DNA of 64,000 nucleotides. Source: Minisyncoccota bacterium. Its GTDB lineage: Bacteria > Patescibacteriota > Minisyncoccia > Phycocordibacterales > DATDWN01. The notes beneath the pieces are model-generated. The model ran no database searches and was not told where the DNA came from. It was given only the letters and a program-made list of their open reading frames with translations. Both the position numbers and the translations under genes were made by a program. The DNA lies in assembly GCA_036517295.1 (NCBI GenBank), contig DATDWZ010000008.1, positions 304-64,303 on the forward strand. The letters run 5' to 3'. Positions 1 to 59,350 of the stretch are shown here, piece after piece (the first letter of the stretch is position 1; every line of letters begins with the position of its first letter).

Positions 1-240
1 GTTCGAACAATTCCTCGACCAGAGCCTTCGCGACCTCCGGAGTCCGCGCTTTAGAGCGCAGAGAATCTGTGAGCGACCGTTCTTCTTCAAGCAGCGTGCG
101 TTTACGGCTCTCGAAATCTTCCTTGTTGAGAGTGCCGTCAACGAACGCGTCGATGAGACGGGTCAACCGCATCTGTATCGCGCCGATTTGCGCTTGCAAA
201 TGTGACTTCCGCTCGTCCTCACTCGCGTCGTCCTGCCGCT
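1..240 (-). pseudogene. Fragment of a large serine recombinase coiled-coil region (partial, runs off window start)
   Basis: Minus-strand translation of 1..240 gives ...QRQDDASEDERKSHLQAQIGAIQMRLTRLIDAFVDGTLNKEDFESRKRTLLEEERSLTDSLRSKARTPEVAKALVEELFE. This heptad-like coiled coil is typical of the C-terminal part of large serine recombinases. Its N-terminal side would lie where the + strand fragment sits, so it is a remnant or rearranged. Confidence 0.35.
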
Positions 241-242
241 GA

Positions 243-730
243 ACGGAATACACCTGCCAGAAGTGTAAGAACAAGATTCCGGCCGCTGACCTCGAAACCG
301 TGTTCCGGGAACAGCTCAAGGAATTCTTCCTATCGTCCGAGGAGCTGACCAACTACCTCGAACAGGCCGACGAGAAGGTAGTGGAGAAGCGCGAACTCCT
401 GGGAACCCTGGAGACGGACCGAGCGACCGTCCAGGCCGAGATGGAGAAGGTCTACAAGCTCTACGTCTCGGACCAAATCAGCGCCGATGGGTTCGGCCGG
501 ACATACAAGCCGCTCGAAGAACGCCTCAAGGCGCTCGACGACCAGCTCCCCAGGCTCCAGGCCGAACTCGATTTCCTGCGCATCAAGAACCTCTCCCGTG
601 ACGAAATCGTAAGCGAGGCCCAGGACCTCTATGGCCGGTGGTCGGATCTCCTGCCGGAGGAGAAGCGCCAGATTATTGAGAACGTGGTCGACCGCATCAC
701 CATCGACCTTTCATACGTTCCCTCTCCCTC
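243..730 (+). pseudogene. C-terminal fragment of a large serine recombinase (zinc-ribbon CxxC plus coiled coil); N-terminus missing
   Basis: The frame opens right after an in-frame TGA at 240-242. It reads ..TCQKCKNKIPAADLETVFREQLKEFFLSSEELTNYLEQ...RLQAELDFLRIKNLSRDEIVSEAQDLYGRWSDLLPEEKRQIIENVVDRITID, the recombinase zinc-ribbon/coiled-coil tail. It is oriented head-to-head with the minus-strand fragment at 1..240. Confidence 0.45.
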
Positions 731-756
731 TGAAATAGCCACAAAAAGGCAACGCG

Positions 757-792
757 ACCACACCCCTGCGTTGCCTTTTTGTACGGCGACCA
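757..792 (+). terminator. Putative intrinsic terminator hairpin (aggcaacgc/gcgttgcct) followed by TTTTTGT
   Basis: 9-bp GC-rich inverted repeat with a 12-nt loop and a T-tract. It lies inside the six-frame ORF 300..1214, which argues that ORF is really two genes. Confidence 0.4.
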
Positions 793-1214
793 TGAGAACC
801 GAACGGAAGCCAGAGGGATATCCCAGTGTTCTCAATAACTTAGCGGACCATTTGAAGAAGAGAATCCTCGACCTCGGAACCAATCAGAAAGAGGCGGCGA
901 GGCAGATTGGCGTCGGGACCGGGAGCTTCACGCATTGGATGAGAAAACACCGCAACCCGACCATTCGTCGCTGGCCGAAGGTCATCCAGTTCCTTGGATA
1001 CGACCCACGGCAGGCGTCGGAGGGCATCGGACAGGGCCTCGTTCGATGGCGACAGGGCAGAGGGATGTCACAGAAGGAATTGGCGGCGCAGCTCGACGTT
1101 GACCCGACCACGCTGGCCAAGTGGGAGCGTGGTGAACGTTGTCCGTCGGGCGACCGCCAGATGCAATGCACCATGCTCCTGTGCAATCTAGGCTTTCCGC
1201 GATTGCATCTGTAA
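792..1214 (+). CDS. Tandem helix-turn-helix (XRE-like) DNA-binding protein
   Basis: Starts at ATG 792, after the hairpin. There are two XRE-like HTH motifs: KKRILDLGTNQKEAARQIGVGTGSFTHWMRK and RWRQGRGMSQKELAAQLDVDPTTLAKWERGE. High GC. Confidence 0.45.
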   Translation: MRTERKPEGYPSVLNNLADHLKKRILDLGTNQKEAARQIGVGTGSFTHWMRKHRNPTIRRWPKVIQFLGYDPRQASEGIGQGLVRWRQGRGMSQKELAAQLDVDPTTLAKWERGERCPSGDRQMQCTMLLCNLGFPRLHL

Positions 1215-1321
1215 GCAGTTGACAATAAAGGACTTAGGAGGTACTCTAGTATTAGAAATCGTCTCGTCGGTAGGAGGAAGCGTTCCTTTTTCGAACGTTT
1301 CCTCGCTGCCTAGGAGGCGAC

Positions 1322-1525
1322 ATGCAGGACAAAGCGCAAGACTGCCTTCGATTTGAAGAACTACTTCGGCGTCTGGAACTCACAGACGACGAGGTCGATT
1401 TCTGCCTCAACCATCCGGGGGCGTGCGCGATTGGCGTACACACCCGAGAGGCTCAGACTCGGACCAGAAACGCCTTGCTGAGGTGGGTCGAAAGTCTCGG
1501 TCAACGGAGAGAACGGACCACGTAA
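1322..1525 (+). CDS. Small hypothetical protein (67 aa) with strong SD
   Basis: AGGAGG sits 7 nt upstream of ATG 1322. A terminator hairpin with T-tract lies at 1549..1572. Confidence 0.45.
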   Translation: MQDKAQDCLRFEELLRRLELTDDEVDFCLNHPGACAIGVHTREAQTRTRNALLRWVESLGQRRERTT

Positions 1526-1548
1526 CTTGCCACCGGCAGGTCCTGAAA

Positions 1549-1572
1549 GCCACCATTGCGGTGGCTTTTTTG
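1549..1572 (+). terminator. Intrinsic terminator gccacc-ATTGC-ggtggc + TTTTTT
   Basis: Perfect 6-bp GC stem, 5-nt loop, U-tract. Confidence 0.55.
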
Positions 1573-1669
1573 TGCTCTCGCGTCCCTACATCTTGCCAAA
1601 TAGACGAGACTTACCGGCGGCAGCCAAAAAAGATTCCCACGCTCGTCCAGGCCGGCCGAATATCCTTCC

Positions 1670-2806
1670 GTGAACGCCGCGCACTGTGCCATGGATGAAC
1701 ACAGCGAGCCACAGTTCAGGGACCTTGAGGAAGTCTTCGCGACCGGCGAGGACCAGGCGGCTGAGATCGCCCTCGAAAAGCTGCTTGAAATCCATGGACA
1801 CCGCGTCCGCCATTTTCTTTACAACGTCACGGATGTGGATGGCGCACATGAAGAGATATACGGAGACGCTTACGCGCAGGCGATCGACGACACGACCACG
1901 AACCAAATCACCAAGAAGAGTACCGAGCTAACGAAGAAGGTCATCACAGACAAGCTCAGACGCAGCTTCCAGGACGAACTGGTCGGCCTGGAATTCACCC
2001 ACCTCGCGGTTGAGATCCAGGCAGCGGGCGGCGCGAAGGGTGCGCTCCTTCACAAGCTGGCTTTCAGTAATGCTCCTGGCGTCACCGTCACAGATGTTCT
2101 CAGCGAGGGCGAATCGCGGGCCCTGTCCCTTGCGGCGTTCTTGACCGAATTAAGCACGGCCCCGACAAAGGCCGGGATCATATTCGACGATCCTGTGTCC
2201 TCATTGGATCACGTCTGGCGGGAGCGGATTGCCAAACGACTCGTGGCGGAAGCGAAGGACCGCCAGGTCATCGTCTTCACGCACGACCTGTTTTTTCTTC
2301 GAAGTCTGCTCGCAACATGCGACAGAGAATCTGTTCCGCTTCAACATCAGTACGTTCGCCGCGATGGCCAGGCTGGCATCTGCTCACCTGACCTCCCGTG
2401 GGTCGCGATGAACGTGAAGAGCAGAATTGGCGTCCTCCGACAGCGCTGGCAGGCGGCCGACAAGCTCCAGAGAACCGTGGGAAACCAAGCGTACGAGCCT
2501 GCTGCCCGCGAAATATTTGGTCTGCTTCGCGAGGCCTGGGAGCGTGGCGTGACCGAAGTCCTGCTCAATGACGTCGTCGAGCGTTACCGCCCTGCAATTG
2601 AAACGAAGAAGGTCGCGATTCTGCACGACATCACGAATGCGGACTGCAAGGCAGTTGATGATGGGATGGCAGAGTGCTCGCGGTGGATGCGTGGACATGA
2701 CGAGTCGATGGCAGACGGGACGCCGTTTCCGACGCCGGCACAGCTTAAGACAAGGATCGACGAACTTGAGGGCTGGGCAAAGGGCATTCGAGCCAAACGG
2801 ACCTGA
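1670..2806 (+). pseudogene. 5'-truncated PrrC/RloC-like ABC-type ATPase with C-terminal HEPN-like domain (no Walker A)
   Basis: ABC signature LSEGESRAL, Walker B IIFDDPVSSLD (D-loop) and H-loop VIVFTHDLFF are present. There is no GxxxxGK[ST] anywhere in the 378 aa. The C-terminal domain contains SRWMRGH (an Rx4H HEPN-type motif). The fold assignment is an inference. Confidence 0.45.
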
Positions 2807-2925
2807 GTCGACGGGTGGCACTGGCCGCACATCAGGCTGCTTCGCCACGGCCTGCTAGGCCATGCCGTGGTCAGCTTGCCGTCGTGATGGCCGCGTGAAG
2901 ATTGTTCAGGCGTTCAAAGCCGCAT

Positions 2926-4074
2926 TTACTGCCAAGGCCACGCGCCTTTTGCGGCGAACCCGAGAAGCACAGCCGCGGCTCCCCAAAGTACCGCCCTGTT
3001 ATGGACAAGTCTCAGGCTCACGGGGTCGTGTGTGGCGCGCACTAGAATGGGCAACACTGCGCGGTCGACCACAAGTACCACAGCCATCACTAGAGTTCCG
3101 AATGGGATTAGGGTTACGTAAAGATTCGATTCCGCTGCTATCGAAAGTGGAGCAGCAAGGAACTCGACAACGCCCGAAGGTATGGGCAGCACACCATTCA
3201 TGGCGAGCATCAGGGGAATGCGCGGCAGGATGTTCAGGGCGACAAGTAGACCAAGACTTGAGACGATTAGGCCGAATGCTCGCCACCTGCTCGATCTCGA
3301 TGCTCGCGTGAGAATCCGTCGAAAGACAGCGATGACTGCGAAATCTGCAAGGGCTCCGATGAGCCAGCCAGGAAGAAGTGGAAGTAGGACCGCAGGCGAG
3401 GTTACGAAAACATACTTTGTGGTGCTCGTAGGCTGTGAGCCGACCTCGATAGTGAACCAGCCGCCGATGTGGACCGCGAATGGGGAAAACAACGGTGAGA
3501 ACGACGCAAATAGAGTCAAGCAGATTAAGAGAGCCAAGGTCAGATTCTGAAGCGCCCTGGCGATGATTAGCCAGAACCGTCTTGTGGCAAAGACAGTCAC
3601 AACAAACGTCGAGGCGAGTATCGCCCCGGCCGCGCTGAGGAAGAGCCCGGCGACCTTCGCTGATGCTCTGGTGATCTCGCTTTGCACTATGCCGCGCAGA
3701 AATTGAAGGGGCTCGCCGTCTGTGAAATCATCCGGCGACAATAAGAACGCAATAGCGTACAAACCAACACCTTCTGTGACGAGCACTGACGACAGTGACA
3801 GAAGGAGCGCGGCATTGAAGGCGCGTCGAGACCATATGGTTGGGCCATAGACCTTATTGAGGAGGAGCGTTCCTATCGAGGCAAAGCCACGCATCCAACC
3901 TAAGTGACGGTTCGTTGTTGTTGCGCGGACTTCGGCAAGTCGGAGCCACCAAGTCTCCAGCGAGCTTTGGAGGACGCCTCGTTCGTCTGGGAACATGAAT
4001 AGGGCGATGTAAATCAGCAATAAAGCTGCACATAGTGCGAGACCCCGAAGAACGACCTCGGCTACGAGCAGCAT
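2926..4074 (-). CDS. Polytopic integral membrane protein, function unknown
   Basis: 382 aa with about 10 hydrophobic segments. High GC. No recognisable motif. Confidence 0.55.
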   Translation of the reverse strand: MLLVAEVVLRGLALCAALLLIYIALFMFPDERGVLQSSLETWWLRLAEVRATTTNRHLGWMRGFASIGTLLLNKVYGPTIWSRRAFNAALLLSLSSVLVTEGVGLYAIAFLLSPDDFTDGEPLQFLRGIVQSEITRASAKVAGLFLSAAGAILASTFVVTVFATRRFWLIIARALQNLTLALLICLTLFASFSPLFSPFAVHIGGWFTIEVGSQPTSTTKYVFVTSPAVLLPLLPGWLIGALADFAVIAVFRRILTRASRSSRWRAFGLIVSSLGLLVALNILPRIPLMLAMNGVLPIPSGVVEFLAAPLSIAAESNLYVTLIPFGTLVMAVVLVVDRAVLPILVRATHDPVSLRLVHNRAVLWGAAAVLLGFAAKGAWPWQ

Positions 4075-4696
4075 GGCTTTATTTCAATGAAAGGAAAGTG
4101 CACGAGTCCGGCCCGACGCAGAGAATACATCAGTCGCCTCAGGCAATCAGACTTTCCACGCCGGGGCGCCAGTGGTGGGCGGCTCCGGGCAATGGAGTTA
4201 AGCACGAGCGCACCGGCGCATCTCGGTGCACTTCTCTCTTCGCCCATTCCCAGGGTTCTCTCGCGATGCGTTTGACTTCGTCGATGGAAAGATCAGACAC
4301 CGGTTGACTGGTGTTCATGATGGTGGTGGGTTAGCTGATATGCCGCCAGCAGCATCCTGAATCGTACCGCCAGACCGCGATCTGTCACCAATTCCTGGCC
4401 GCTGAAGCTCCTTCTTGGCCCAGTCGAGGAGAGCGCGAGCTTGTACGTTCAATTCCTCGGTGTCATACTGGACGGATGAATTGGTCGAATCGGTTCGAGC
4501 CCTGTCCTGAAGACGGTCACAATCTTACGGAGTAAAAAAGTCACGGGAGTTGAAGCCTGTTTGAGATATTTTTAGAGTGAAACGAATAAAAATATCCAAA
4601 CACGGGGACTGACCGAGTAGCGGTCAACTCCCGGTAAGGTCACAAAGAGAAACTTCGGCAGAAGTGAGCGAAAAAATGGGTATATTTTCTGATGCT

Positions 4697-8626: not shown

Positions 8627-10069
8627 CTAGAAATGCAAGTTCACCGGATCCTGCGACTCGTCCTGCCGTCTGGCATAGTTCAGAGTGTCAAGGAAATCTG
8701 GCAGGTTCCCAAAGCCCCTCTTGAACCGATACAACAGATGGATGAGCTTCTGCTTCGGTTCACTGCCTTGTGGTGAGATGCGCCAGTGGTTGCTGGCTAC
8801 ACGAAGCGCGCGACTGACCATCTCTTCCGAATCCTGTCCGTTCGGCACGGCGTTCCTGAGTCGCGCTTGACTCAAGTTGACATGAGGTTGCCCTTTCGAG
8901 AAGAACAGGGCGTCCAGAACCTGTCGCGCAAGTTTCAGGTCCTCATCCGTGACTGGCGCAGAAGTCGGTGGAAGCCGCTTCTTCACAGTCATCTTCTCCG
9001 AAGCCGAAGGTTTTGGTGTGGCCGCCACCGACCTCGTTGGCGGAGGCGGAGCAGGTTTTGGAGTCGGTATTTTCGTAACCAGCTTTTGTTCCGGAATCTC
9101 GATCTTGGCCAAACCGGTCGAGACTTGGGGTCTCGAAGAAGTCGGTTCCGTCAGTGCCACCTTCAGTTGATTGAGGCGAACGACACACTGCTCGATCTCG
9201 GTCGCCATGAGAGCCAGATCCTTCGGGTCGCGCCTCTGAATTGCGACCAGAGTGGGAGGTGATAGAAGAACGTCCACTCCTTCCTGTGTTCTCTGGACAT
9301 ACCGCCGCATTGACCTGAGATAGTCCGCAATCAAGTGTGGTCTTTTGGCGTTGCCCACTTGCACACCCGCCTCTTCGGCCATCTGTCTGGCCTGAACACG
9401 CGCCTGATTGATGTTCAGTCTTTTGGTCACCACCATCCTTGCAATTTCCATCTGCAAGTCGTGGTGGAGGCCGGAGATGAACACACCAAGCGTATGGCTG
9501 AGTCGGTCTTCTTCCGAAATAGTCGGCGACATCATCGCCTGAACTTCTGGATGAAGCCGGAGAAGCGCGAGATGAGAGTACACCCAGGGTTCAGACCGAG
9601 CGAAAATCTTGGCGATTTTCGCAATCTGTTCACCGGGTGAGAAACTCTCCATTCGCTTTGACTTCCTGATACGGTTGATGGCTTGAGAGATTTCCAGAGG
9701 TGTGTGACTGGACCTGCCGAAGTTGCCGACCACCGACGCGACGAACTGTTCGTCGCTATCTTTAATTGGGCGCACCCAGGCAAGCATGGTATCCACCCCG
9801 GCCATACCGCAGGCAATCCACCGACGTTCACCGTCAACAAGCTCGTACTTGTGTTTCGGGTCGCCAATGACTGCTTTAACCACAATCGGGGTTTGCTGTC
9901 CGATTTCCTCGATGCTTGCAGCCAGGTCGTTCATGTCCTTGGCATCGAAGAAGTTGCGAGGCTGGTCGGTGAAACGCCGGATTTGGTTCCGGAGAATACG
10001 CTCAACCTTGCTGACTTCCGAACCGAGAACGCTAAAACCCGCTTCTGCTTGCTCTTGTGTGGTGGCCAT
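8627..10069 (-). CDS. ParB/Srx-domain (ParB-like nuclease/partition) protein with Pro-rich linker and C-terminal extension
   Basis: N-terminal QQTPIVVKAVIGDPKHKYELVDGERRWIACGMAGVDTMLAWVR (ParB N-domain GERR motif). SD AAGGAG 7 nt upstream. GC about 55%, unlike the flanks. Confidence 0.7.
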   Translation of the reverse strand: MATTQEQAEAGFSVLGSEVSKVERILRNQIRRFTDQPRNFFDAKDMNDLAASIEEIGQQTPIVVKAVIGDPKHKYELVDGERRWIACGMAGVDTMLAWVRPIKDSDEQFVASVVGNFGRSSHTPLEISQAINRIRKSKRMESFSPGEQIAKIAKIFARSEPWVYSHLALLRLHPEVQAMMSPTISEEDRLSHTLGVFISGLHHDLQMEIARMVVTKRLNINQARVQARQMAEEAGVQVGNAKRPHLIADYLRSMRRYVQRTQEGVDVLLSPPTLVAIQRRDPKDLALMATEIEQCVVRLNQLKVALTEPTSSRPQVSTGLAKIEIPEQKLVTKIPTPKPAPPPPTRSVAATPKPSASEKMTVKKRLPPTSAPVTDEDLKLARQVLDALFFSKGQPHVNLSQARLRNAVPNGQDSEEMVSRALRVASNHWRISPQGSEPKQKLIHLLYRFKRGFGNLPDFLDTLNYARRQDESQDPVNLHF

Positions 10070-23661: not shown

Positions 23662-24906
23662 TTACAAAATTTTCAAAGCATCCTCAACCGACATCAATTC
23701 CGAATCTGCGGATGTCCTCATCTTCACTTCAACCTTATTCTCAGCAACGGTCTTATCGCTAACCACAAACCGAACCGGAATACCTATAAGGTCAGAATCT
23801 GCGAATTTCTCTCCCGGTCGTATATCCCGGTCATCATAGAGTACAGGAATTCCCCTCTTTCGCAAATCGGCATATAAGTTGTCTGTAAAAGAGACTACTG
23901 CCTCGTTTACACCGAGTCTCACTAGATGGACCACAAACGGAGCAACTTCTTTCGGCCAAACCATACCTTTGTCGTCGGAAAGAAGTTCAACAATTGTACC
24001 CATAAGTCGTCCGAGGCCAATACCATAAGCTCCAAGAACAACGGTACTTTCTTTACCATTTTCTTCTTTAAAATTAAGACCGAGCTCGGTAGTATAACGA
24101 GTACCATATTTGAATATATTTCCAACTTCGATTGATTTCGCCTCTACCAATGTTTCTTTTTTTAATCCTAATCCTTGTAAAATATCATTCTGCATAACCT
24201 CGTCATTTACAGCCAAACTTTTTTCTTTATCTATAAAAATATGATCCTCCCCAGCATCACAAATCGTCTGAAATTCGTGACTGAATTTACTAAACATTCC
24301 TCCTGAGGCAAAAGTTAAATAAGTTTTATCTCCAATCCCCACCCGGTTATATACATTTTTATATGCTCGAATAGCTTTTTCATAGAACGCATCTAACTCC
24401 TTCTGATTTCTATTGAAAGAGTACATGTCTTTCATTAGAAATTCTCTCCCACGCATTATTCCGGACTTTGACCTTAGTTCATTTCTAAATTTTGTCTGGA
24501 ATTGATGTGTATACCTAGGCAAATCACGATATGAACTAATGTGATCCTTCATCATTCTTACCATTGGTTCTTCGTGAGTACAGCCAAGCCCAAGCTCCGT
24601 ATCATTTTTTAATTTTGTCTTAAACCATACATCAACTTTTTCGTCGCTCCATCTATCGGTTGCTTTCCATATCTCTGGATCCTGAAGTGTTGAGAGAGAT
24701 ACTTCTTCACTACCAATCGCTTCCATTTCCTCTCTAATGATTTTTCTAAGGTTATTGATTACCCTTAAACCTAGAGGTAAGTAATCATAAACTCCAGCCA
24801 TTTCTTTGTGTATAAATCCAGCTTTAATAAGAAGCTGGGCGTTCTTTGAAACCTCATCGGACGGAGCTTCTTTACGGGTTTTTGTAAAAAGTTGTGATTG
24901 TTTCAT
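23662..24906 (-). CDS. proS: Proline--tRNA ligase (short form lacking editing insertion)
   Basis: Class II motifs. KNAQLLIKAGFIHKEMAGVYDYLPLGLRV N-terminus. The likely start is MKQSQLF at 24906. Confidence 0.85.
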   Translation of the reverse strand: MKQSQLFTKTRKEAPSDEVSKNAQLLIKAGFIHKEMAGVYDYLPLGLRVINNLRKIIREEMEAIGSEEVSLSTLQDPEIWKATDRWSDEKVDVWFKTKLKNDTELGLGCTHEEPMVRMMKDHISSYRDLPRYTHQFQTKFRNELRSKSGIMRGREFLMKDMYSFNRNQKELDAFYEKAIRAYKNVYNRVGIGDKTYLTFASGGMFSKFSHEFQTICDAGEDHIFIDKEKSLAVNDEVMQNDILQGLGLKKETLVEAKSIEVGNIFKYGTRYTTELGLNFKEENGKESTVVLGAYGIGLGRLMGTIVELLSDDKGMVWPKEVAPFVVHLVRLGVNEAVVSFTDNLYADLRKRGIPVLYDDRDIRPGEKFADSDLIGIPVRFVVSDKTVAENKVEVKMRTSADSELMSVEDALKIL

Positions 24907-25003
24907 CCCGTTAGAGTTTATGTTTATATATTCTAGCAAATAAAATAAATTTATCTGAATACTGTGACAACGGTGTCTCCGAAACGAGTAAGACTCTAAC
25001 GGG
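24907..25003 (-). repeat. Copy C of ~100-bp leader/MITE-like element (CCCGTTAGAGTTTA ... GACTCTAACGGG) abutting the proS start codon
   Basis: TIRs. Internal TAGAATATATAA. Ends exactly at ATG 24906. Confidence 0.55.
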
Positions 25004-30079: not shown

Positions 30080-30373
30080 ATGCTCACAGTAACACATGTG
30101 ATCTCAGTCGTTCTGATCCTTACCGGAGTGTTCACCTGGTTCAGAATCTCCAGACGGAACATCCCGCCGGCCACACCTTATCCCGTCGGTTCGGAAATCC
30201 TCCTCGGGAAGGAACTCGTAACGATCGTGGGGCACCGGCACTCCACCAGAAACGGAGACTTCCTGTACGATGTCGAGGGCGAAACGGGTGATCAGGCGGT
30301 GGCACGACATTCAGAAATGTCGTCTATGAAAAAAGTGCGGTCGTCTGGGCAAGAGAAGCAATGGCTACACTAG
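30080..30373 (+). CDS. Small GC-rich protein with N-terminal TM helix (97 aa)
   Basis: AGGAG 6 nt upstream of ATG 30080. The downstream hairpin caggaaaacc-tgccggc-ggttttcctg is a 10-bp perfect stem. About 58% GC. Confidence 0.45.
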   Translation: MLTVTHVISVVLILTGVFTWFRISRRNIPPATPYPVGSEILLGKELVTIVGHRHSTRNGDFLYDVEGETGDQAVARHSEMSSMKKVRSSGQEKQWLH

Positions 30374-30478
30374 ACTGGAAACGGTCCGCGTGTCTGCTAC
30401 GAGCGTGAGAAGCATCCCGGCACAATGGCCGCCGAGCAGGAAAACCTGCCGGCGGTTTTCCTGTTATAATGGAAAATC

Positions 30479-34597: not shown

Positions 34598-34915
34598 TCC
34601 GGTGTAGCTCAGTGGTAGAGCAATCGCCTGTACCGAAAGGTTGTGCAGCTTCCTAAAGTAATTTAGGATGAAAAATGAGGTGAATTCGGGGAACCCCACA
34701 GTTTAATAGCTGAGGGCAATCCCGAGCCAAGTCCCGAGAGAAATCGAGGGAAAGGTGTAGAGACTATCTCGTAAGAGAGTAGCCGTCACGCAAGTGAGTA
34801 GGCGAAGCGCCCCACATCCCACTCAGAAATGAAGGATGATGATATAGTCCAGACCAAAGGCAACTTTGGATAAAATGTAAGCGATTGGTCGTAGGTTCGA
34901 TCCCTACCGCCGGAG
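34598..34915 (+). tRNA. tRNA-Asn(GUU) interrupted by a group I intron in the anticodon loop (exons 34598-34631 and 34878-34915; CCA not encoded)
   Basis: Acceptor tccggtg/cgccgga (U1-A72, G73 as in Asn). D-arm gctc-agtggta-gagc. Anticodon stem atcgc/gcgat with loop CUGU|UAA after splicing. T-arm gtagg-ttcgatc-cctac. 5' exon ends in U; intron ends in G. Confidence 0.7.
34632..34877 (+). ncRNA. Group I intron (IC3-like, tRNA anticodon-loop type), ~246 nt
   Basis: Conserved core strings AAUCCCGAGCCAAGUCCCGAGAG (cf. AAUCCUGAGCCAAGCCGAAG), AAGGUGUAGAGACUA (P7; cf. GGUGUAGAGACUA) and UCGGGGAACCCC. Ends with omega-G. Confidence 0.7.
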
Positions 34916-42005: not shown

Positions 42006-42296
42006 AGTTATAATTATACTTTACTATTCTTTACAAGCCAAACTCACGAAGTGGACAACCTTATGAACACAACATAATAAAAATAGTATTGGCAGATCAA
42101 TAACCTATGATATAATTCACCCACAACTGAATAAGCAGACCTAACCCTATAGTTTTTATTATAGGTATGGTTGCAGGTCGTATAAGGCACAAAGAACCCA
42201 TCGCAGGGTCGCCTTATACGCCTTATCGGGAAACCGGTATGAGGGACTTCGGTCTCTACCTGTGGTGGGCTTTTTGTATATAAAAATAGTAAAATT

Positions 42297-47883: not shown

Positions 47884-48222
47884 ATGTATCTAGACATGAT
47901 AAGACTGAATCAAACGCAGGTGGTGCAACACCCCTGCGGGCCGGAGATCCGTCACAGGTACCTGACACATCTGTCAAACGGAACTACGGTGGCATTGTGG
48001 TCTGTGTCGGCAGACTCCTGTTTCGGCCCAGAGACACGAAACTATGACATCGTGGTCACCGTCCTTGAGGGTATGGGTATCGTCCTCATCGGCGACGAAG
48101 AGGAGCCGTACCACCCGGGCATGACCACCCACATCCCGGCCGGCACGAAGGCCTGCATCAAGCAAGCCGGCACGGATACGACCGTGCTACAGTGCAACTT
48201 CCCCACCCTCAGGATTGAGTAA
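47884..48222 (+). CDS. Cupin-domain small protein (GC-rich)
   Basis: AAGGAG 6 nt upstream. G.E..H.H...VLEGMG...G...PYHPGMTTHIPAG cupin_2 pattern. Terminator follows. Confidence 0.65.
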   Translation: MYLDMIRLNQTQVVQHPCGPEIRHRYLTHLSNGTTVALWSVSADSCFGPETRNYDIVVTVLEGMGIVLIGDEEEPYHPGMTTHIPAGTKACIKQAGTDTTVLQCNFPTLRIE

Positions 48223-48249
48223 GAGGGGTAAGTCCCCGCCCGTCAACGA

Positions 48250-48290
48250 ACCCGCCCCTGTGCTGGTAGTCGGGGGCGGGTTTTGTTTTA
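48250..48290 (+). terminator. Intrinsic terminator (cccgcccc ... ggggcggg + TTTTGTTTT)
   Basis: GC stem plus U-tract after the cupin stop. Confidence 0.6.
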
Positions 48291-48300
48291 TATAAAACAC

Positions 48301-56422: not shown

Positions 56423-57187
56423 TTATGCACAGTCTTCGGTGCTATACTCCCCCACTTTTACCCTTTTTATATGAAAAGTTGTAGCTTTTACGCCTAAACT
56501 CTCGGCCAAATCAGAAACGAACTGCCTAACATAAAACCCGCTCGAAACAGTTATGGAAATTTTATCAATTAGAAAGATGTCAAAGAGACTCTTTGACATA
56601 AGTTCCTGCCATTGTTTTATTATTTCCTCTTGCCTGAAATCACCGGAAACGGAATTTATATTTCTTACGATATATCGTAAGAGATCATCTTTTACAATCT
56701 CTCGTCGTGATACAAAATCCACGGAATGAACCTCAACCTCATGACTCGGTATTTCAATCTCATTCAATTTCCCTTCCCTAGCCCATTGAAAAAGTGGCTT
56801 ACTGTCCACAGGCTTCGACGAATATGCCGGATACTTTTGTTCAAACTTACCAACAAACTTTTTTAACTCTTTTTTTAAATCTTTCCTAGACACTAAATGC
56901 TGACTACTAACCCCTACTCGACCTAAAAGGTCGAGTGTATCCGTCTCAAATCCCCATAAAATCTCAAACTCATATATTTTTGGTAACCCTAAATACTCAT
57001 CCTTTTTCTTTATCTCCTCACCTGACAAAACTAAAAGTAGCCCTTCTGCCATAGGATCCAGTCGCCCGGCATATGTCATTACCACATCCGAATACTCCGG
57101 ATTCTCCTTTTTGAACCTTAAAATTACCTCGTTTGGTGTCTCTCCAATATTTTTATACAGCAGATGGACACCACTATTTTTTTTCAT
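56423..57187 (-). CDS. truB: tRNA pseudouridine(55) synthase TruB
   Basis: AGRLDPMAEGLLLVL (catalytic Asp motif), HLLYKNIGETP N-terminus. Confidence 0.8.
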   Translation of the reverse strand: MKKNSGVHLLYKNIGETPNEVILRFKKENPEYSDVVMTYAGRLDPMAEGLLLVLSGEEIKKKDEYLGLPKIYEFEILWGFETDTLDLLGRVGVSSQHLVSRKDLKKELKKFVGKFEQKYPAYSSKPVDSKPLFQWAREGKLNEIEIPSHEVEVHSVDFVSRREIVKDDLLRYIVRNINSVSGDFRQEEIIKQWQELMSKSLFDIFLIDKISITVSSGFYVRQFVSDLAESLGVKATTFHIKRVKVGEYSTEDCA

Positions 57188-57209: not shown

Positions 57210-58154
57210 ATGTCAGATAAATCAAAACCAGAAAACAAAATCAGCACTGAACCGTATAAAGGTGTTCGAGATTTCTATCCGGAAGACATGGCTGTTCAAA
57301 ATTATATTTTTGACACATGGAAAAAAGTGGCCAAAGAAGCCGGCTTTGTAGAATACTCCGCATCCATCCTTGAACCTGCCGAACTGTACAGAGCAAAAAC
57401 TGGCGAGGAAATAGTAAACGAGCAAATGTTCACTTTCACGGATAAGGGTGAGCGGGAGATTGCTCTGCGTCCAGAAATGACCCCAACCTTGGCCCGAATG
57501 ATTGCAGGAAAACGAAAATCTCTCAAATTCCCCCTCCGATGGTTCTCTATCCCGAATCTTTTCCGGTACGAGAGACCTCAACGAGGGCGAAAACGTGAAC
57601 ACTGGCAGTTGAATTGCGATATTATGGGCATAGCTGACCTCTCGGCAGAAGTAGAGACTATTTCTCTAGCTCACGCCATTATGAAAGCCTTCGGGGCGAA
57701 AGACAAGGACTTCGTGATACGAATAAACGACAGAAAACTCCTGAACGAAAAATTTGGGAACGAAAAAGCCATAAAACTTCTCGACAGAAAAGATAAAATG
57801 TCTGCTGAAGAGTTCGATCAAAAATGGAGTGAAGTATCATCGGAACCTTTTGACCCGAATATCGAACCGAACGAGACTATTAAAAAACTTATCGATGGTC
57901 TGAATAAAAAAGGGATAGCAAATGTCATCTTCGATACAACCATAACTCGTGGTTTTGACTACTACAACGGCGTAGTCTTTGAAGTTTTTGATACGGACCC
58001 AGCAAACAACCGCTCACTCTTTGGTGGCGGACGGTATGATAACCTCTTGGAGATTTTTGGCGTAGAACCAATACCGACTATCGGCTTCGGTATGGGAGAT
58101 ATTACTATACGAGACTTTCTCGAAACGCACGGCTTACCAACATGCGAAAAGTAG
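57210..58154 (+). CDS. Histidyl-tRNA synthetase catalytic-core protein lacking the C-terminal anticodon-binding domain (HisRS/HisZ-like)
   Basis: Motif 1 region (KGVRDFYPED). HisA (FTFTDKGEREIALRPEMTP). Motif 2 (FRYERPQRGRKREHWQLNCD). Motif 3 (GGGRYDNL...GFGMGDITIRDF). The protein ends about 12 aa later. Confidence 0.7.
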   Translation: MSDKSKPENKISTEPYKGVRDFYPEDMAVQNYIFDTWKKVAKEAGFVEYSASILEPAELYRAKTGEEIVNEQMFTFTDKGEREIALRPEMTPTLARMIAGKRKSLKFPLRWFSIPNLFRYERPQRGRKREHWQLNCDIMGIADLSAEVETISLAHAIMKAFGAKDKDFVIRINDRKLLNEKFGNEKAIKLLDRKDKMSAEEFDQKWSEVSSEPFDPNIEPNETIKKLIDGLNKKGIANVIFDTTITRGFDYYNGVVFEVFDTDPANNRSLFGGGRYDNLLEIFGVEPIPTIGFGMGDITIRDFLETHGLPTCEK

Positions 58155-58723
58155 TTTTTGATATCGAAACAAAGAATATTTTTCAAGATGTCGGGTCAAA
58201 CAACCCGGAGGATTTGGATATATCGGTCGTAGGAGTATACGATTACGAAACGGATAAATACCTGACCTTTTTGCAGGAAGAATTCGACAAGATGTGGTCG
58301 TTTTTCAAAAAAGCCGATGTTATAATCACATTCAACGGCGAGTACTTCGATATCCCCCTTCTGAACAAATACTACAAAAAAGCAGGCCACGGCGACCTAA
58401 AGAATATTCGCTCTCTTGATATTTTCAAAGAAGTGAAACAGACCTCCGGCAGATGGTTGAAATTGGATAAAATAGCCGAAGGGACTTTTGGTATAAATAA
58501 AGTCGGCGACGGCCTGGAAGCGGTAAAATGGTGGCGGACCGGCGAGATAGATAAAATAAAGAAATACTGCACGGAGGACGTAAAAATCACGAAGGATGTC
58601 TATGAATTCGCTCTTAAAAATAAAAAGATAATGTATAAAGAAGGACCTTTCGTTAAGGAAATAAAACTTGAAACGAAACACTGGGAGCCAATCGCGGAAG
58701 TAAAAACGCAAAGTTTGTTTTAG
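58142..58723 (+). CDS. DEDDy-type 3'-5' exonuclease (RNase H-like fold)
   Basis: VVFDIETKN (Exo I DxE), ITFNGEYFDIPLL (Exo II), YCTEDVKITKDVYE (Exo III YxxxD). Confidence 0.7.
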   Translation: MRKVVFDIETKNIFQDVGSNNPEDLDISVVGVYDYETDKYLTFLQEEFDKMWSFFKKADVIITFNGEYFDIPLLNKYYKKAGHGDLKNIRSLDIFKEVKQTSGRWLKLDKIAEGTFGINKVGDGLEAVKWWRTGEIDKIKKYCTEDVKITKDVYEFALKNKKIMYKEGPFVKEIKLETKHWEPIAEVKTQSLF

Positions 58724-58838: not shown

Positions 58839-58954
58839 AAAATATTATTCGACAAAATTTAGCTTAGTGGTTATTTTAAATTTTTTGTACGACTTTATTT
58901 TCTTATGAGTAACGCGAATTAGAAAATAAGAAGTGCCCTTGTGGTATTAAAAAA

Positions 58955-58979
58955 GGCGGAGGTTTGCAGTCCCTCCGCC
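58955..58979 (-). terminator. Intrinsic terminator (ggcggagg-tttgcagtc-cctccgcc) with U-tract on minus strand; A-tract on plus (bidirectional-capable)
   Basis: 8-bp GC stem. TTTTTTA follows on the minus strand. Confidence 0.6.
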
Positions 58980-59101
58980 TTTGCCCGTCGCCGACGCCAT
59001 CTGGGTTGGGCTCTCCGGCCCGCTTCCTCACCAGTGACGCTCCGCGCCGTCTTACCTCTTTTGGCCCACCATACTTCGTACGCAGGGCCGGCGCCCGCCG
59101 A

Positions 59102-59269
59102 TCAGCCGCCCGCCGTCGCGTCGGAGTGCGTGCCGTGGCTGTTGGCCGCCGTCGCCGCGCGCGTCGTGTGGTTGGTCGGAATCATCGTGCCGGCGCCCTT
59201 GGGCGTCGCGTTGATGTCGAAGTTATCCAGTCCGGCGCTCGCGCCGTGATCGCTCCGCATTCGTCGCAT
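59102..59269 (-). CDS. Very GC-rich (~70%) small gene: 55-aa Gly/Ala/Thr/His-rich hydrophilic protein with own promoter, SD and terminator (could alternatively be an sRNA)
   Basis: GAGGTGA sits 2 nt before ATG. The product is MRRMRSDHGASAGLDNFDINATPKGAGTMIPTNHTTRAATAANSHGTHSDATAGG. A promoter lies upstream and a terminator downstream. Confidence 0.4.
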   Translation of the reverse strand: MRRMRSDHGASAGLDNFDINATPKGAGTMIPTNHTTRAATAANSHGTHSDATAGG

Positions 59270-59321
59270 GGTCACCTCGTTGGCTCTTGGGTCGAAACAA
59301 CAATCAGTAACAGAAGACTAA

Positions 59322-59350
59322 ACTTTACCATACCCCTCTCTTGCCGTCAA
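59322..59350 (-). promoter_or_regulatory. Sigma70-like promoter TTGACG-N17-TAAAGT with upstream AT-rich UP-like tract, driving the 59269..59102 gene
   Basis: -35 TTGACG (59345-59350, minus strand). 17-nt spacer. -10 TAAAGT (59322-59327). AT-rich tract 59351-59380. Confidence 0.45.

Follow-up and report, generated by a model that had tools for sequence, protein, structure and literature searches.

A C-terminal anticodon-binding domain is regarded as a hallmark of class IIa aminoacyl-tRNA synthetases, SerRS excepted (PMC4357726). In histidyl-tRNA synthetase (HisRS), the anticodon is a weak identity element and minihelices are charged (Tian et al. 2015, PMC4357726). Citing Augustine and Francklyn 1997, the same paper reports that the catalytic domain suffices to make the adenylate and to aminoacylate, the E. 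coli domain in isolation reaching ~0.6% of the full-length efficiency. In the T. thermophilus complex, the insertion domain clamps the acceptor stem and the D-R-G tripeptide touches G-1 of tRNA-His from the partner subunit (PMC4357726). Losses of synthetase editing domains are documented in the reduced genomes of Mollicutes (PMC4014445). As for Candidate Phyla Radiation (CPR) bacteria, no description of a natural HisRS devoid of the anticodon-binding domain was found in the open-access literature. Here, we report a candidate for such an enzyme, encoded by a hisS gene on contig DATDWZ010000008.1 of a Minisyncoccota bacterium (GCA_036517295.1). The window is the whole stretch of 64,000 nucleotides (nt) of this contig that was analyzed, and its relevant features are collected in Table 1.

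According to our analysis, this domain-less gene is, with a probability of about three in four, the housekeeping HisRS of a subclade of Paceibacteria, a group of ultra-small Patescibacteria, the anticodon-binding domain having been lost once and in place. A Pfam scan of its product of 314 amino acids (aa) returned PF13393 (tRNA-synt_His, 2.1e-36) and PF00587 and nothing else. As the initial annotation had supposed, no match to PF03129 (HGTP_anticodon) was obtained in this protein. The same annotation had described the open reading frame (ORF) as a catalytic core ending about 12 aa after motif 3, and the tail is indeed this short, with 10 residues. Instead of stopping there, the corresponding segment of the full-length relatives (...ETHxLLP...) runs on into a ~95-aa domain. 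The further claim that all three class II motifs and the HisA and HisB elements are present held for motifs 2 and 3, HisA and HisB, which were read from the sequence. The start codon at 57210 was preferred to a longer TTG start at 57111, the latter being unsupported because the homologues all begin near M..KLSTEPYKGVRDF. Across 35 family members, RGFDYY, FGGGRYDNL and LRPEMTP are invariant, together with R247, Y251/Y252, the segment G272-D277, and D78 and G80 of the tripeptide that aligns with D-R-G. The LRPEGT segment of E. coli, with which LRPEMTP aligns, is the histidine-ordering loop, with Glu83 and Thr85. In motif 3, the window protein reads GFGMGDIT vs GFAMGLER in E. coli; the arginine is thus replaced, and the same change is seen in the T. 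cruzi, T. brucei and Thermoplasma acidophilum HisRS whose structures are solved. For the window HisRS, AlphaFold gave a mediocre model, with a predicted local distance difference test (pLDDT) score of 74 and disordered motif loops, which served for fold confirmation only.

More than 8000 protein matches were retrieved from the 5.8 billion proteins searched. The best 120 of them are 302-365 aa long and 64-99% identical, PF03129 occurs in none, and those whose records name an organism are assigned to Parcubacteria or Paceibacterota. The ratio of nonsynonymous to synonymous substitution rates (dN/dS) was then estimated by the Nei-Gojobori method on five domain-less and three full-length pairs, with dS values of 0.9-2.1, which are near saturation and usable. 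It amounted to 0.06-0.12 for the domain-less pairs vs 0.04-0.08 for the full-length ones. The domain-less hisS is under strong purifying selection, comparable to that acting on its full-length orthologues.

The origin of the loss was traced by scanning one genome per GTDB species. At least 559 genomes contained relatives and the best 80 loci were taken, among which every record naming a lineage is Patescibacteria, a few being labelled "bacterium" only. Complete ORFs were obtained from 77 usable loci, giving 78 sequences together with that of the window. Twenty-six of the 78 proteins are domain-less: they measure 254-347 aa and end 3-13 residues past the position aligned with window residue 309, whereas the 52 others are full-length (389-464 aa), with 83-112 extra residues. 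This extension corresponds to PF03129 in both full-length proteins scanned, L028 from the sister branch and L037 from the closed chromosome OZ244961.1, and no PF03129 was found by Pfam in a 254-aa form. In a neighbour-joining tree built on 246 gap-poor core columns, the domain-less proteins form one clade inside the full-length ones, requiring one change under Fitch parsimony, and the split that sets them apart was recovered in 165 of 200 bootstrap replicates. Such a nested clade, whose members occupy the locus of their full-length orthologues, would be most simply explained by a single ancestral in-place deletion of ~290 nt, between the linker (...ETHxL/LP...) and the next gene.

The same picture was obtained with a library clustered at 50% identity. 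There, the domain-less clade comes down to one representative, P0241 (329 aa), the next matches being nearly all 410-440 aa long and the other complete high-scoring matches full length. Five short entries (P0276, P0289, P0297, P0326 and P0334) were inspected as candidates for independent domain losses and were mostly set aside as fragment-like genes: three of the five break in or just past motif 3 or reach into the beginning of the missing domain, P0276 and P0334 being ambiguous between a fragment and an independent loss.

Besides the loss of the anticodon-binding domain, the insertion domain is eroded within the domain-less clade, from 65 to 59, 49, 45, 41, 23 and 13 residues. The shortest proteins, L071, L077 and L088 (254 aa each) and L090 (255 aa), group with L081 (264 aa) and L039 (277 aa) in a subclade recovered in 189 of 200 bootstrap replicates. 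These mini-HisRS are devoid of both the anticodon-binding domain and nearly all of the insertion domain. The HisA element reads RGQTYY in those inspected (RGQAYY in L081), and a dN/dS of 0.057 was obtained for L071 vs L077.

The catalytic core itself does not distinguish the two groups. Domain-less and full-length proteins both conserve YKGVRDF, LRPEMTP, FRYERPQRGRxREHWQLNxD, RGFDYYTG.VFE, GGGRYDNL and GFGMGD.T, and no class-specific fixed substitution was found at any position of their alignment. The sole systematic difference found concerns the mean net charge of the core, -5.4 in domain-less vs -9.1 in full-length proteins, which is suggestive of a less acidic core helping RNA binding. The mechanism that we propose would start with the deletion, once, of the C-terminal domain between the motif-3 helix and the next gene. 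The remaining enzyme would activate histidine and charge tRNA-His via acceptor-end contacts only (the G-1:C73 region and the CCA end), these contacts being provided by the motif-2 loop, by the partner subunit through its D-K/R-G pocket and, in proteins that have it, by the insertion domain. Such a HisRS would be blind to the anticodon. Charging without anticodon contacts is made plausible by the small weight of the anticodon in HisRS identity and by the isolated E. coli core, which still aminoacylates, albeit at ~0.6%. Of the two options raised by the initial annotation, our results favour a minimal HisRS that depends on recognition of the acceptor stem: the gene is a positional orthologue, with all its catalytic motifs and under strong purifying selection. 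We further lean, with less assurance, toward the idea that a large Paceibacteria clade has an anticodon-blind HisRS, shrunk in some members to 254 aa, as its sole histidyl-tRNA synthetase.

Several points weigh against the assignment of the domain-less gene as the housekeeping HisRS. Compared with the full enzyme, the engineered E. coli core loses ~170-fold in efficiency, so that a housekeeping role would need either tolerance of a low activity or compensating changes, and the charge shift is modest. Neither the window nor ~1.4 Mb of related loci yielded a tRNA-His gene. The tree is a neighbour-joining tree with 82% support rather than a maximum-likelihood one. Both closed chromosomes among the 80 loci (OZ244961.1 and CP066682.1) carry the full-length form, and the checks for a second hisS cover loci, with no complete domain-less genome among them. 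Finally, the score of the window protein against the hisS model TIGR00442, 268.9 bits, lies below the trusted cut-off of 286.75. The best matched stretch corresponds to model positions 2-194 of 406, a second stretch not being reported, and the absent domain probably accounts for the shortfall.

The alternative that survives best, although we regard it as unlikely, is that of a HisRS paralogue with a new function (a non-tRNA acceptor, a special tRNA or a regulatory role), housekeeping being ensured by a canonical HisRS encoded elsewhere. Such recruitments are known: HisZ is a synthetase core without anticodon-binding domain in a non-canonical role, as are EpmA/PoxA and GluQRS, and HisRS cores without detectable anticodon-binding domain exist in fusion with NUDIX or GNAT domains. 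Likewise, a domain-less CysRS copy was proposed to be dedicated to a special tRNA (PMC5389517). Moreover, a bacterial-type second hisS would escape the pattern scan that delivered the 80 loci. However, as judged by position, the gene is orthologous to the full-length hisS found in sister lineages and is not an additional copy. No genome occurs twice among the best 80 loci, i.e., no second locus of the family was seen in any of them (0/80), and no second region resembling E. coli HisRS was detected in any locus examined; these observations are weak evidence. In addition, neither class-specific substitutions nor relaxed constraint were observed, and either would be expected after a change of function.

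As for the library fusions themselves, P0295 (666 aa) associates a HisRS core with NUDIX and P0343 (679 aa) a GNAT acetyltransferase with a HisRS core, both without detectable anticodon-binding domain, and P0303 (608 aa) consists of an N-terminal tRNA_SAD domain followed by a full-length HisRS.

A second alternative, which we consider improbable, is that the lost domain is supplied in trans, a separate anticodon-binding domain or the co-translated exonuclease encoded just downstream of hisS binding the body of the tRNA and restoring efficiency. The link between hisS and the exonuclease is the best conserved of the neighbourhood, with ~90% of loci vs 28-64% for truB, the start and stop codons of the two genes overlap in many members, and the C-terminal tail of the exonuclease, which is highly conserved, might serve for docking. 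Among domain-less and full-length loci with enough flanking sequence, the exonuclease lies directly 3' of hisS in 18/21 and 42/46, truB is adjacent in 14/22 and 12/43, and uvrD in 12/18 and 12/33, respectively. The adjacency is therefore equally tight in lineages that retain the domain: the pairing is older than the domain loss and not a response to it. The exonuclease also keeps all its DEDDy residues, and no fusion with HisRS was found by Pfam, an exonuclease domain being present in none of the five longest among 150 listed HisRS representatives. The exonuclease, which comes after hisS in domain-less and full-length loci alike and is similar to the proofreading domains of DNA polymerases, is therefore not a replacement for the lost domain.

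The search for a separate domain led to the same conclusion. With a hidden Markov model (HMM) derived from 52 Paceibacteria HisRS anticodon-binding domains, no HisRS-type anticodon-binding domain was found when the window and 395 kb of domain-less loci were translated in six frames. The window gave a single match, the ProRS encoded by the ORF at 23662-24939 (-), which was discarded as a location of the missing domain since it possesses its own HGTP_anticodon domain. As this ProRS keeps its domain, the loss is specific to HisRS. A database-wide search for stand-alone domains gave 40 proteins of 62-171 aa, 27 of which lie on contigs shorter than 1.6 kb; the one that was checked, P0393, lies on a 289-kb contig and belongs to a full-length hisS that two frameshifts have split. 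A stand-alone family was rejected on these grounds.

The same ProRS is of the short bacterial type: with 425 aa, it falls ~140 aa under the 568-aa model TIGR00409 (400 bits). Judging from this length, it probably has no insertion editing domain.

The third alternative, a HisZ-like regulatory subunit of ATP phosphoribosyltransferase, had been put forward in the initial annotation as a HisZ-like paralog and was not borne out; we now judge it very improbable. HisZ is the non-catalytic partner of HisG in histidine biosynthesis, and its aminoacylation site is degenerate. It resembles the window protein by its length (~310 aa) and domain make-up, the anticodon-binding domain being absent from both, and ~10 of the best 120 homologues bear the name "ATP phosphoribosyltransferase regulatory subunit" in NCBI. 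The absence of the domain has probably led to this misannotation, which would be systematic. Indeed, the window protein scores 268.9 bits with TIGR00442 (hisS) vs 163.2 bits with TIGR00443 (hisZ), and it remains far below the cut-off of every hisZ model (271.65 for TIGR00443; NF0089xx). When solved structures were compared by sequence, the HisRS of T. cruzi and T. brucei reached 234 bits and that of Thermoplasma 220, followed by bacterial HisRS (~100) and HisZ (53-72). Foldseek agrees, T. cruzi and Thermoplasma HisRS being the best solved fold relatives. Besides, the catalytic residues expected to be lost in a HisZ are invariant here, and neither hisG nor any other his gene was found within flanks of ~10 kb in the window and four related genomes. 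Patescibacteria are generally devoid of amino-acid biosynthesis, which also speaks against a HisZ.

The weakest alternative, an artefact or a decaying pseudogene (frameshift, misassembly or recent truncation), has a negligible probability: frameshifted hisS copies do occur in the related assemblies L095-L097, but the identical 314-aa protein is found on 16 contigs, which stem from several distinct ENA and Logan samples, 25 further species-level genomes and over 100 protein clusters show the same architecture, dN/dS is low, and the overlapping next gene leaves no coding space for the missing domain. The initial annotation had called for a check of the 58140-58160 junction, which is genuine. A misassembly was rejected because of the 16 identical copies, and the same overlapping exonuclease gene is present in all six displayed loci of this protein; the conserved architecture and the variable, non-slippery spacing among relatives equally spoke against a frameshift. 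A programmed frameshift joining HisRS to the exonuclease was discarded in view of the gaps observed in relatives (-20 to +112 nt) and of the five longest representatives, in which Pfam found no exonuclease domain. Hence, the two outcomes at this locus by which the initial annotation would have abandoned its view were not encountered: no anticodon-binding domain can be recovered by correcting a frameshift, the space being filled by the exonuclease gene and the window holding no HisRS-type domain, and a dN/dS of 0.06-0.12 is not that of a decaying gene.

Separately, in L095 (5071-6321), L096 (2715-4011) and L097 (1936-3232), hisS, exonuclease and uvrD are each split into several ORFs. These loci represent one lineage in three independent assemblies (one long-contig, two SPAdes), the hisS of L097 having two frameshifts, and their broken genes may reflect a decaying genome or a systematic consensus problem.

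Table 1. Features of the hisS-exonuclease locus, in window coordinates.
Feature	Coordinates	Strand	Remarks
truB (pseudouridine synthase), divergent	56423..57187	-	start codon 22 nt from the hisS start
hisS without anticodon-binding domain	57210..58154	+	314 aa, HisRS catalytic core and insertion domain; TAG stop 58152-58154
D78-K79-G80	57441..57449	+	aligned with D-R-G of T. thermophilus HisRS, on the basis of alignment only
LRPEMTP	57465..57485	+	aligns with E. coli LRPEGT; invariant in both groups of relatives, domain-less and full-length
Class II motif 2 and loop, NLFRYERPQRGRKREHWQLNCDIMG	57555..57629	+	R119, E121, R127, R129 and Q133 invariant
Insertion domain, residues 172-236 (65 aa)	57723..57917	+	complete in the window protein
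HisA element, RGFDYYNGVVFE (RGFDYY)	57948..57983	+	read from sequence and alignment
HisB element, FGGGRYDNL	58020..58046	+	read from sequence and alignment
Class II motif 3, PTIGFGMGDITIRDFL	58074..58121	+	canonical arginine missing
Tail ETHGLPTCEK (10 residues) and stop	58122..58154	+	matches the start of the interdomain linker
Overlap of hisS 3' end and exonuclease ATG, ATGCGAAAAGTAG	58142..58154	+	13 nt, different frames
Stand-alone DEDDy 3'-5' exonuclease	58142..58723	+	193 aa, PF13482 RNase_H_2 (1.8e-14)
Exo I, DIE	58160-58168	+	exonuclease motif
Exo II, NGEYFD	58334-58351	+	exonuclease motif
Exo III, YCTED	58565-58579	+	exonuclease motif

The gene order at the locus is the same with the full-length hisS, namely a divergent truB, hisS and the exonuclease, then often dsbA and a convergent uvrD/PD-(D/E)XK gene. 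As described initially, hisS and the exonuclease overlap by 13 nt in different frames, the exonuclease ATG starting 13 nt before the end of the hisS TAG stop. This tight overlap had been considered unusual, which did not stand against the frequency of the adjacency in both classes and their similar range of spacing: the distance between the two genes runs from -20 to about +112 nt in domain-less and full-length loci, values of -13, -8, -1 and +1 are all seen, and L016 and L085 show the same -13 overlap as the window. The overlap is ordinary gene packing. It may provide translational coupling of hisS and the exonuclease in a compact operon.

Further downstream, between the exonuclease and PAP2 genes, a GC-rich island was observed at 58901-59350 (~68-74% GC in a ~40% GC genome). 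It contains a possible ORF of 55-57 aa at 59102-59275 (-), preceded by an upstream GAGGTG, and a hairpin with a T-run at ~58955-58985; no Rfam match was obtained for the island at E <= 1. It is found in the contigs of this genome only, the exonuclease of the relatives abutting dsbA or uvrD.

The exonuclease is more conserved than HisRS. Its best 120 homologues share 72-100% identity with it and almost all measure exactly 193 aa, and an identical protein is recorded in NCBI from "Candidatus Paceibacterota bacterium". This record fits a Patescibacteria (CPR) origin of the window, of Paceibacteria or Parcubacteria type. In 21 homologues, D7, E9, D70, Y142 and D146 are invariant, and N65 nearly so. 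The model of the protein (pLDDT 92) adopts an RNase H-like fold whose best matches are proofreading domains, those of the family-B polymerases Tgo, 9°N and KOD of archaea and that of T7 DNA polymerase, with Foldseek E values of 8e-8 to 1e-4, and the sequence matches concur. This fold prediction and these matches place the enzyme with DNA-polymerase exonucleases rather than with DnaQ-like ones. The initial description of an unrelated DnaQ-like exonuclease was therefore right in that the gene is separate and is not the missing domain; "DnaQ-like" was only approximate, the enzyme being of the DEDDy type with a family-B/T7 proofreading match. The C-terminal tail (...KHWEP..E.KTQSLF), which has several invariant residues, is disordered in the model. 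Its last part, ...EVKTQSLF at 58697-58720 (residues 186-193), has E186, T189, S191, L192 and F193 invariant and K188 and Q190 nearly so in the 21 homologues. The QSLF end may loosely resemble a beta-clamp-binding peptide. If this likeness were true, the exonuclease would be a clamp-tethered proofreading or repair enzyme.

Other features of the window lie outside this locus. A tRNA gene lies at 34598-34912 (+), its anticodon loop interrupted by a group I intron (RF00028, 75.6 bits, 34630-34870). Its exons, assembled by eye, give U1-A72, G73 and the loop CUGUUAA, and it is probably a tRNA-Asn(GUU); ARAGORN reported no tRNA in the whole 64-kb window. A LOOT RNA (RF03000, 72.9 bits), presumably a CPR-associated small RNA of unknown function, is present at 42138-42257 (+). 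In a window of 34-45% GC, stretches with GC >=58% occur at 151-3150, 4101-4450, 8751-9050, 30151-30450 and 47901-48300, and the first 3 kb may have been acquired or may result from a chimeric assembly.

The dispensability of the HisRS anticodon-binding domain was previously shown with a crippled laboratory fragment. The Paceibacteria proteins offer instead a natural reduction series, from ~415 to ~310 and 254 aa with intermediates, which tests the minimum of a synthetase in the living cell, and the clade constitutes a system for asking what offsets the lost binding energy. If the domain-less protein is the sole HisRS, it would be a natural counterpart of the engineered minimal cores, with the identity of tRNA-His residing entirely at the acceptor end. 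If active, the 254-aa form may be the smallest natural HisRS, although HisRS lengths were not surveyed. The family is also a possible source of a compact, anticodon-independent HisRS for genetic-code engineering. Besides, the misnaming as HisZ could make Patescibacteria seem devoid of HisRS, or endowed with a partial histidine biosynthesis.

Among solved enzymes, the closest to the window protein are the HisRS of the Thermoplasma/trypanosome type (PDB 1wu7, 3hrk and 3hri), whose core is ~50-55% identical as estimated by eye and whose Foldseek identity is 36-40% over the whole alignment. LRPEMTP, the motif-2 loop, HisA, HisB and the arginine-less motif 3 GFGxGD are common to all of them. The solved enzymes differ by a C-terminal HGTP_anticodon domain of ~90-100 aa, whereas the window protein ends at the interdomain linker. 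The HisRS of sister Paceibacteria (L028, 400 aa; L037, 417 aa) share the locus, the exonuclease and the catalytic motifs, with a core 50-65% identical; these full-length proteins keep PF03129, which the window clade lost, together with the insertion domain in parts of the clade. HisZ is, like the window protein, a HisRS-like core of similar length without anticodon-binding domain, but it is non-catalytic and acts with HisG, whereas the window protein has invariant catalytic residues and no his context. In terms of architecture, the window protein is matched by the N-terminal fragment of E. coli HisRS, made of the catalytic and insertion domains and cut just past motif 3, which PMC4357726 reports from Augustine and Francklyn 1997. 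That fragment is a laboratory construct which, in the same account, forms histidyl-adenylate and charges tRNA-His with ~0.6% efficiency, while the window protein is natural, selected, long-lived and known from sequence. A natural synthetase that lost its anticodon-binding domain is known in the CysRS copy cysS* of Desulfobacterales (PMC5389517). However, cysS* is a second copy, located beside the selC* tRNA-Cys to which it is proposed to be dedicated, whereas the hisS of the window is, by its position, the orthologue of ordinary hisS genes, with no special tRNA nearby.

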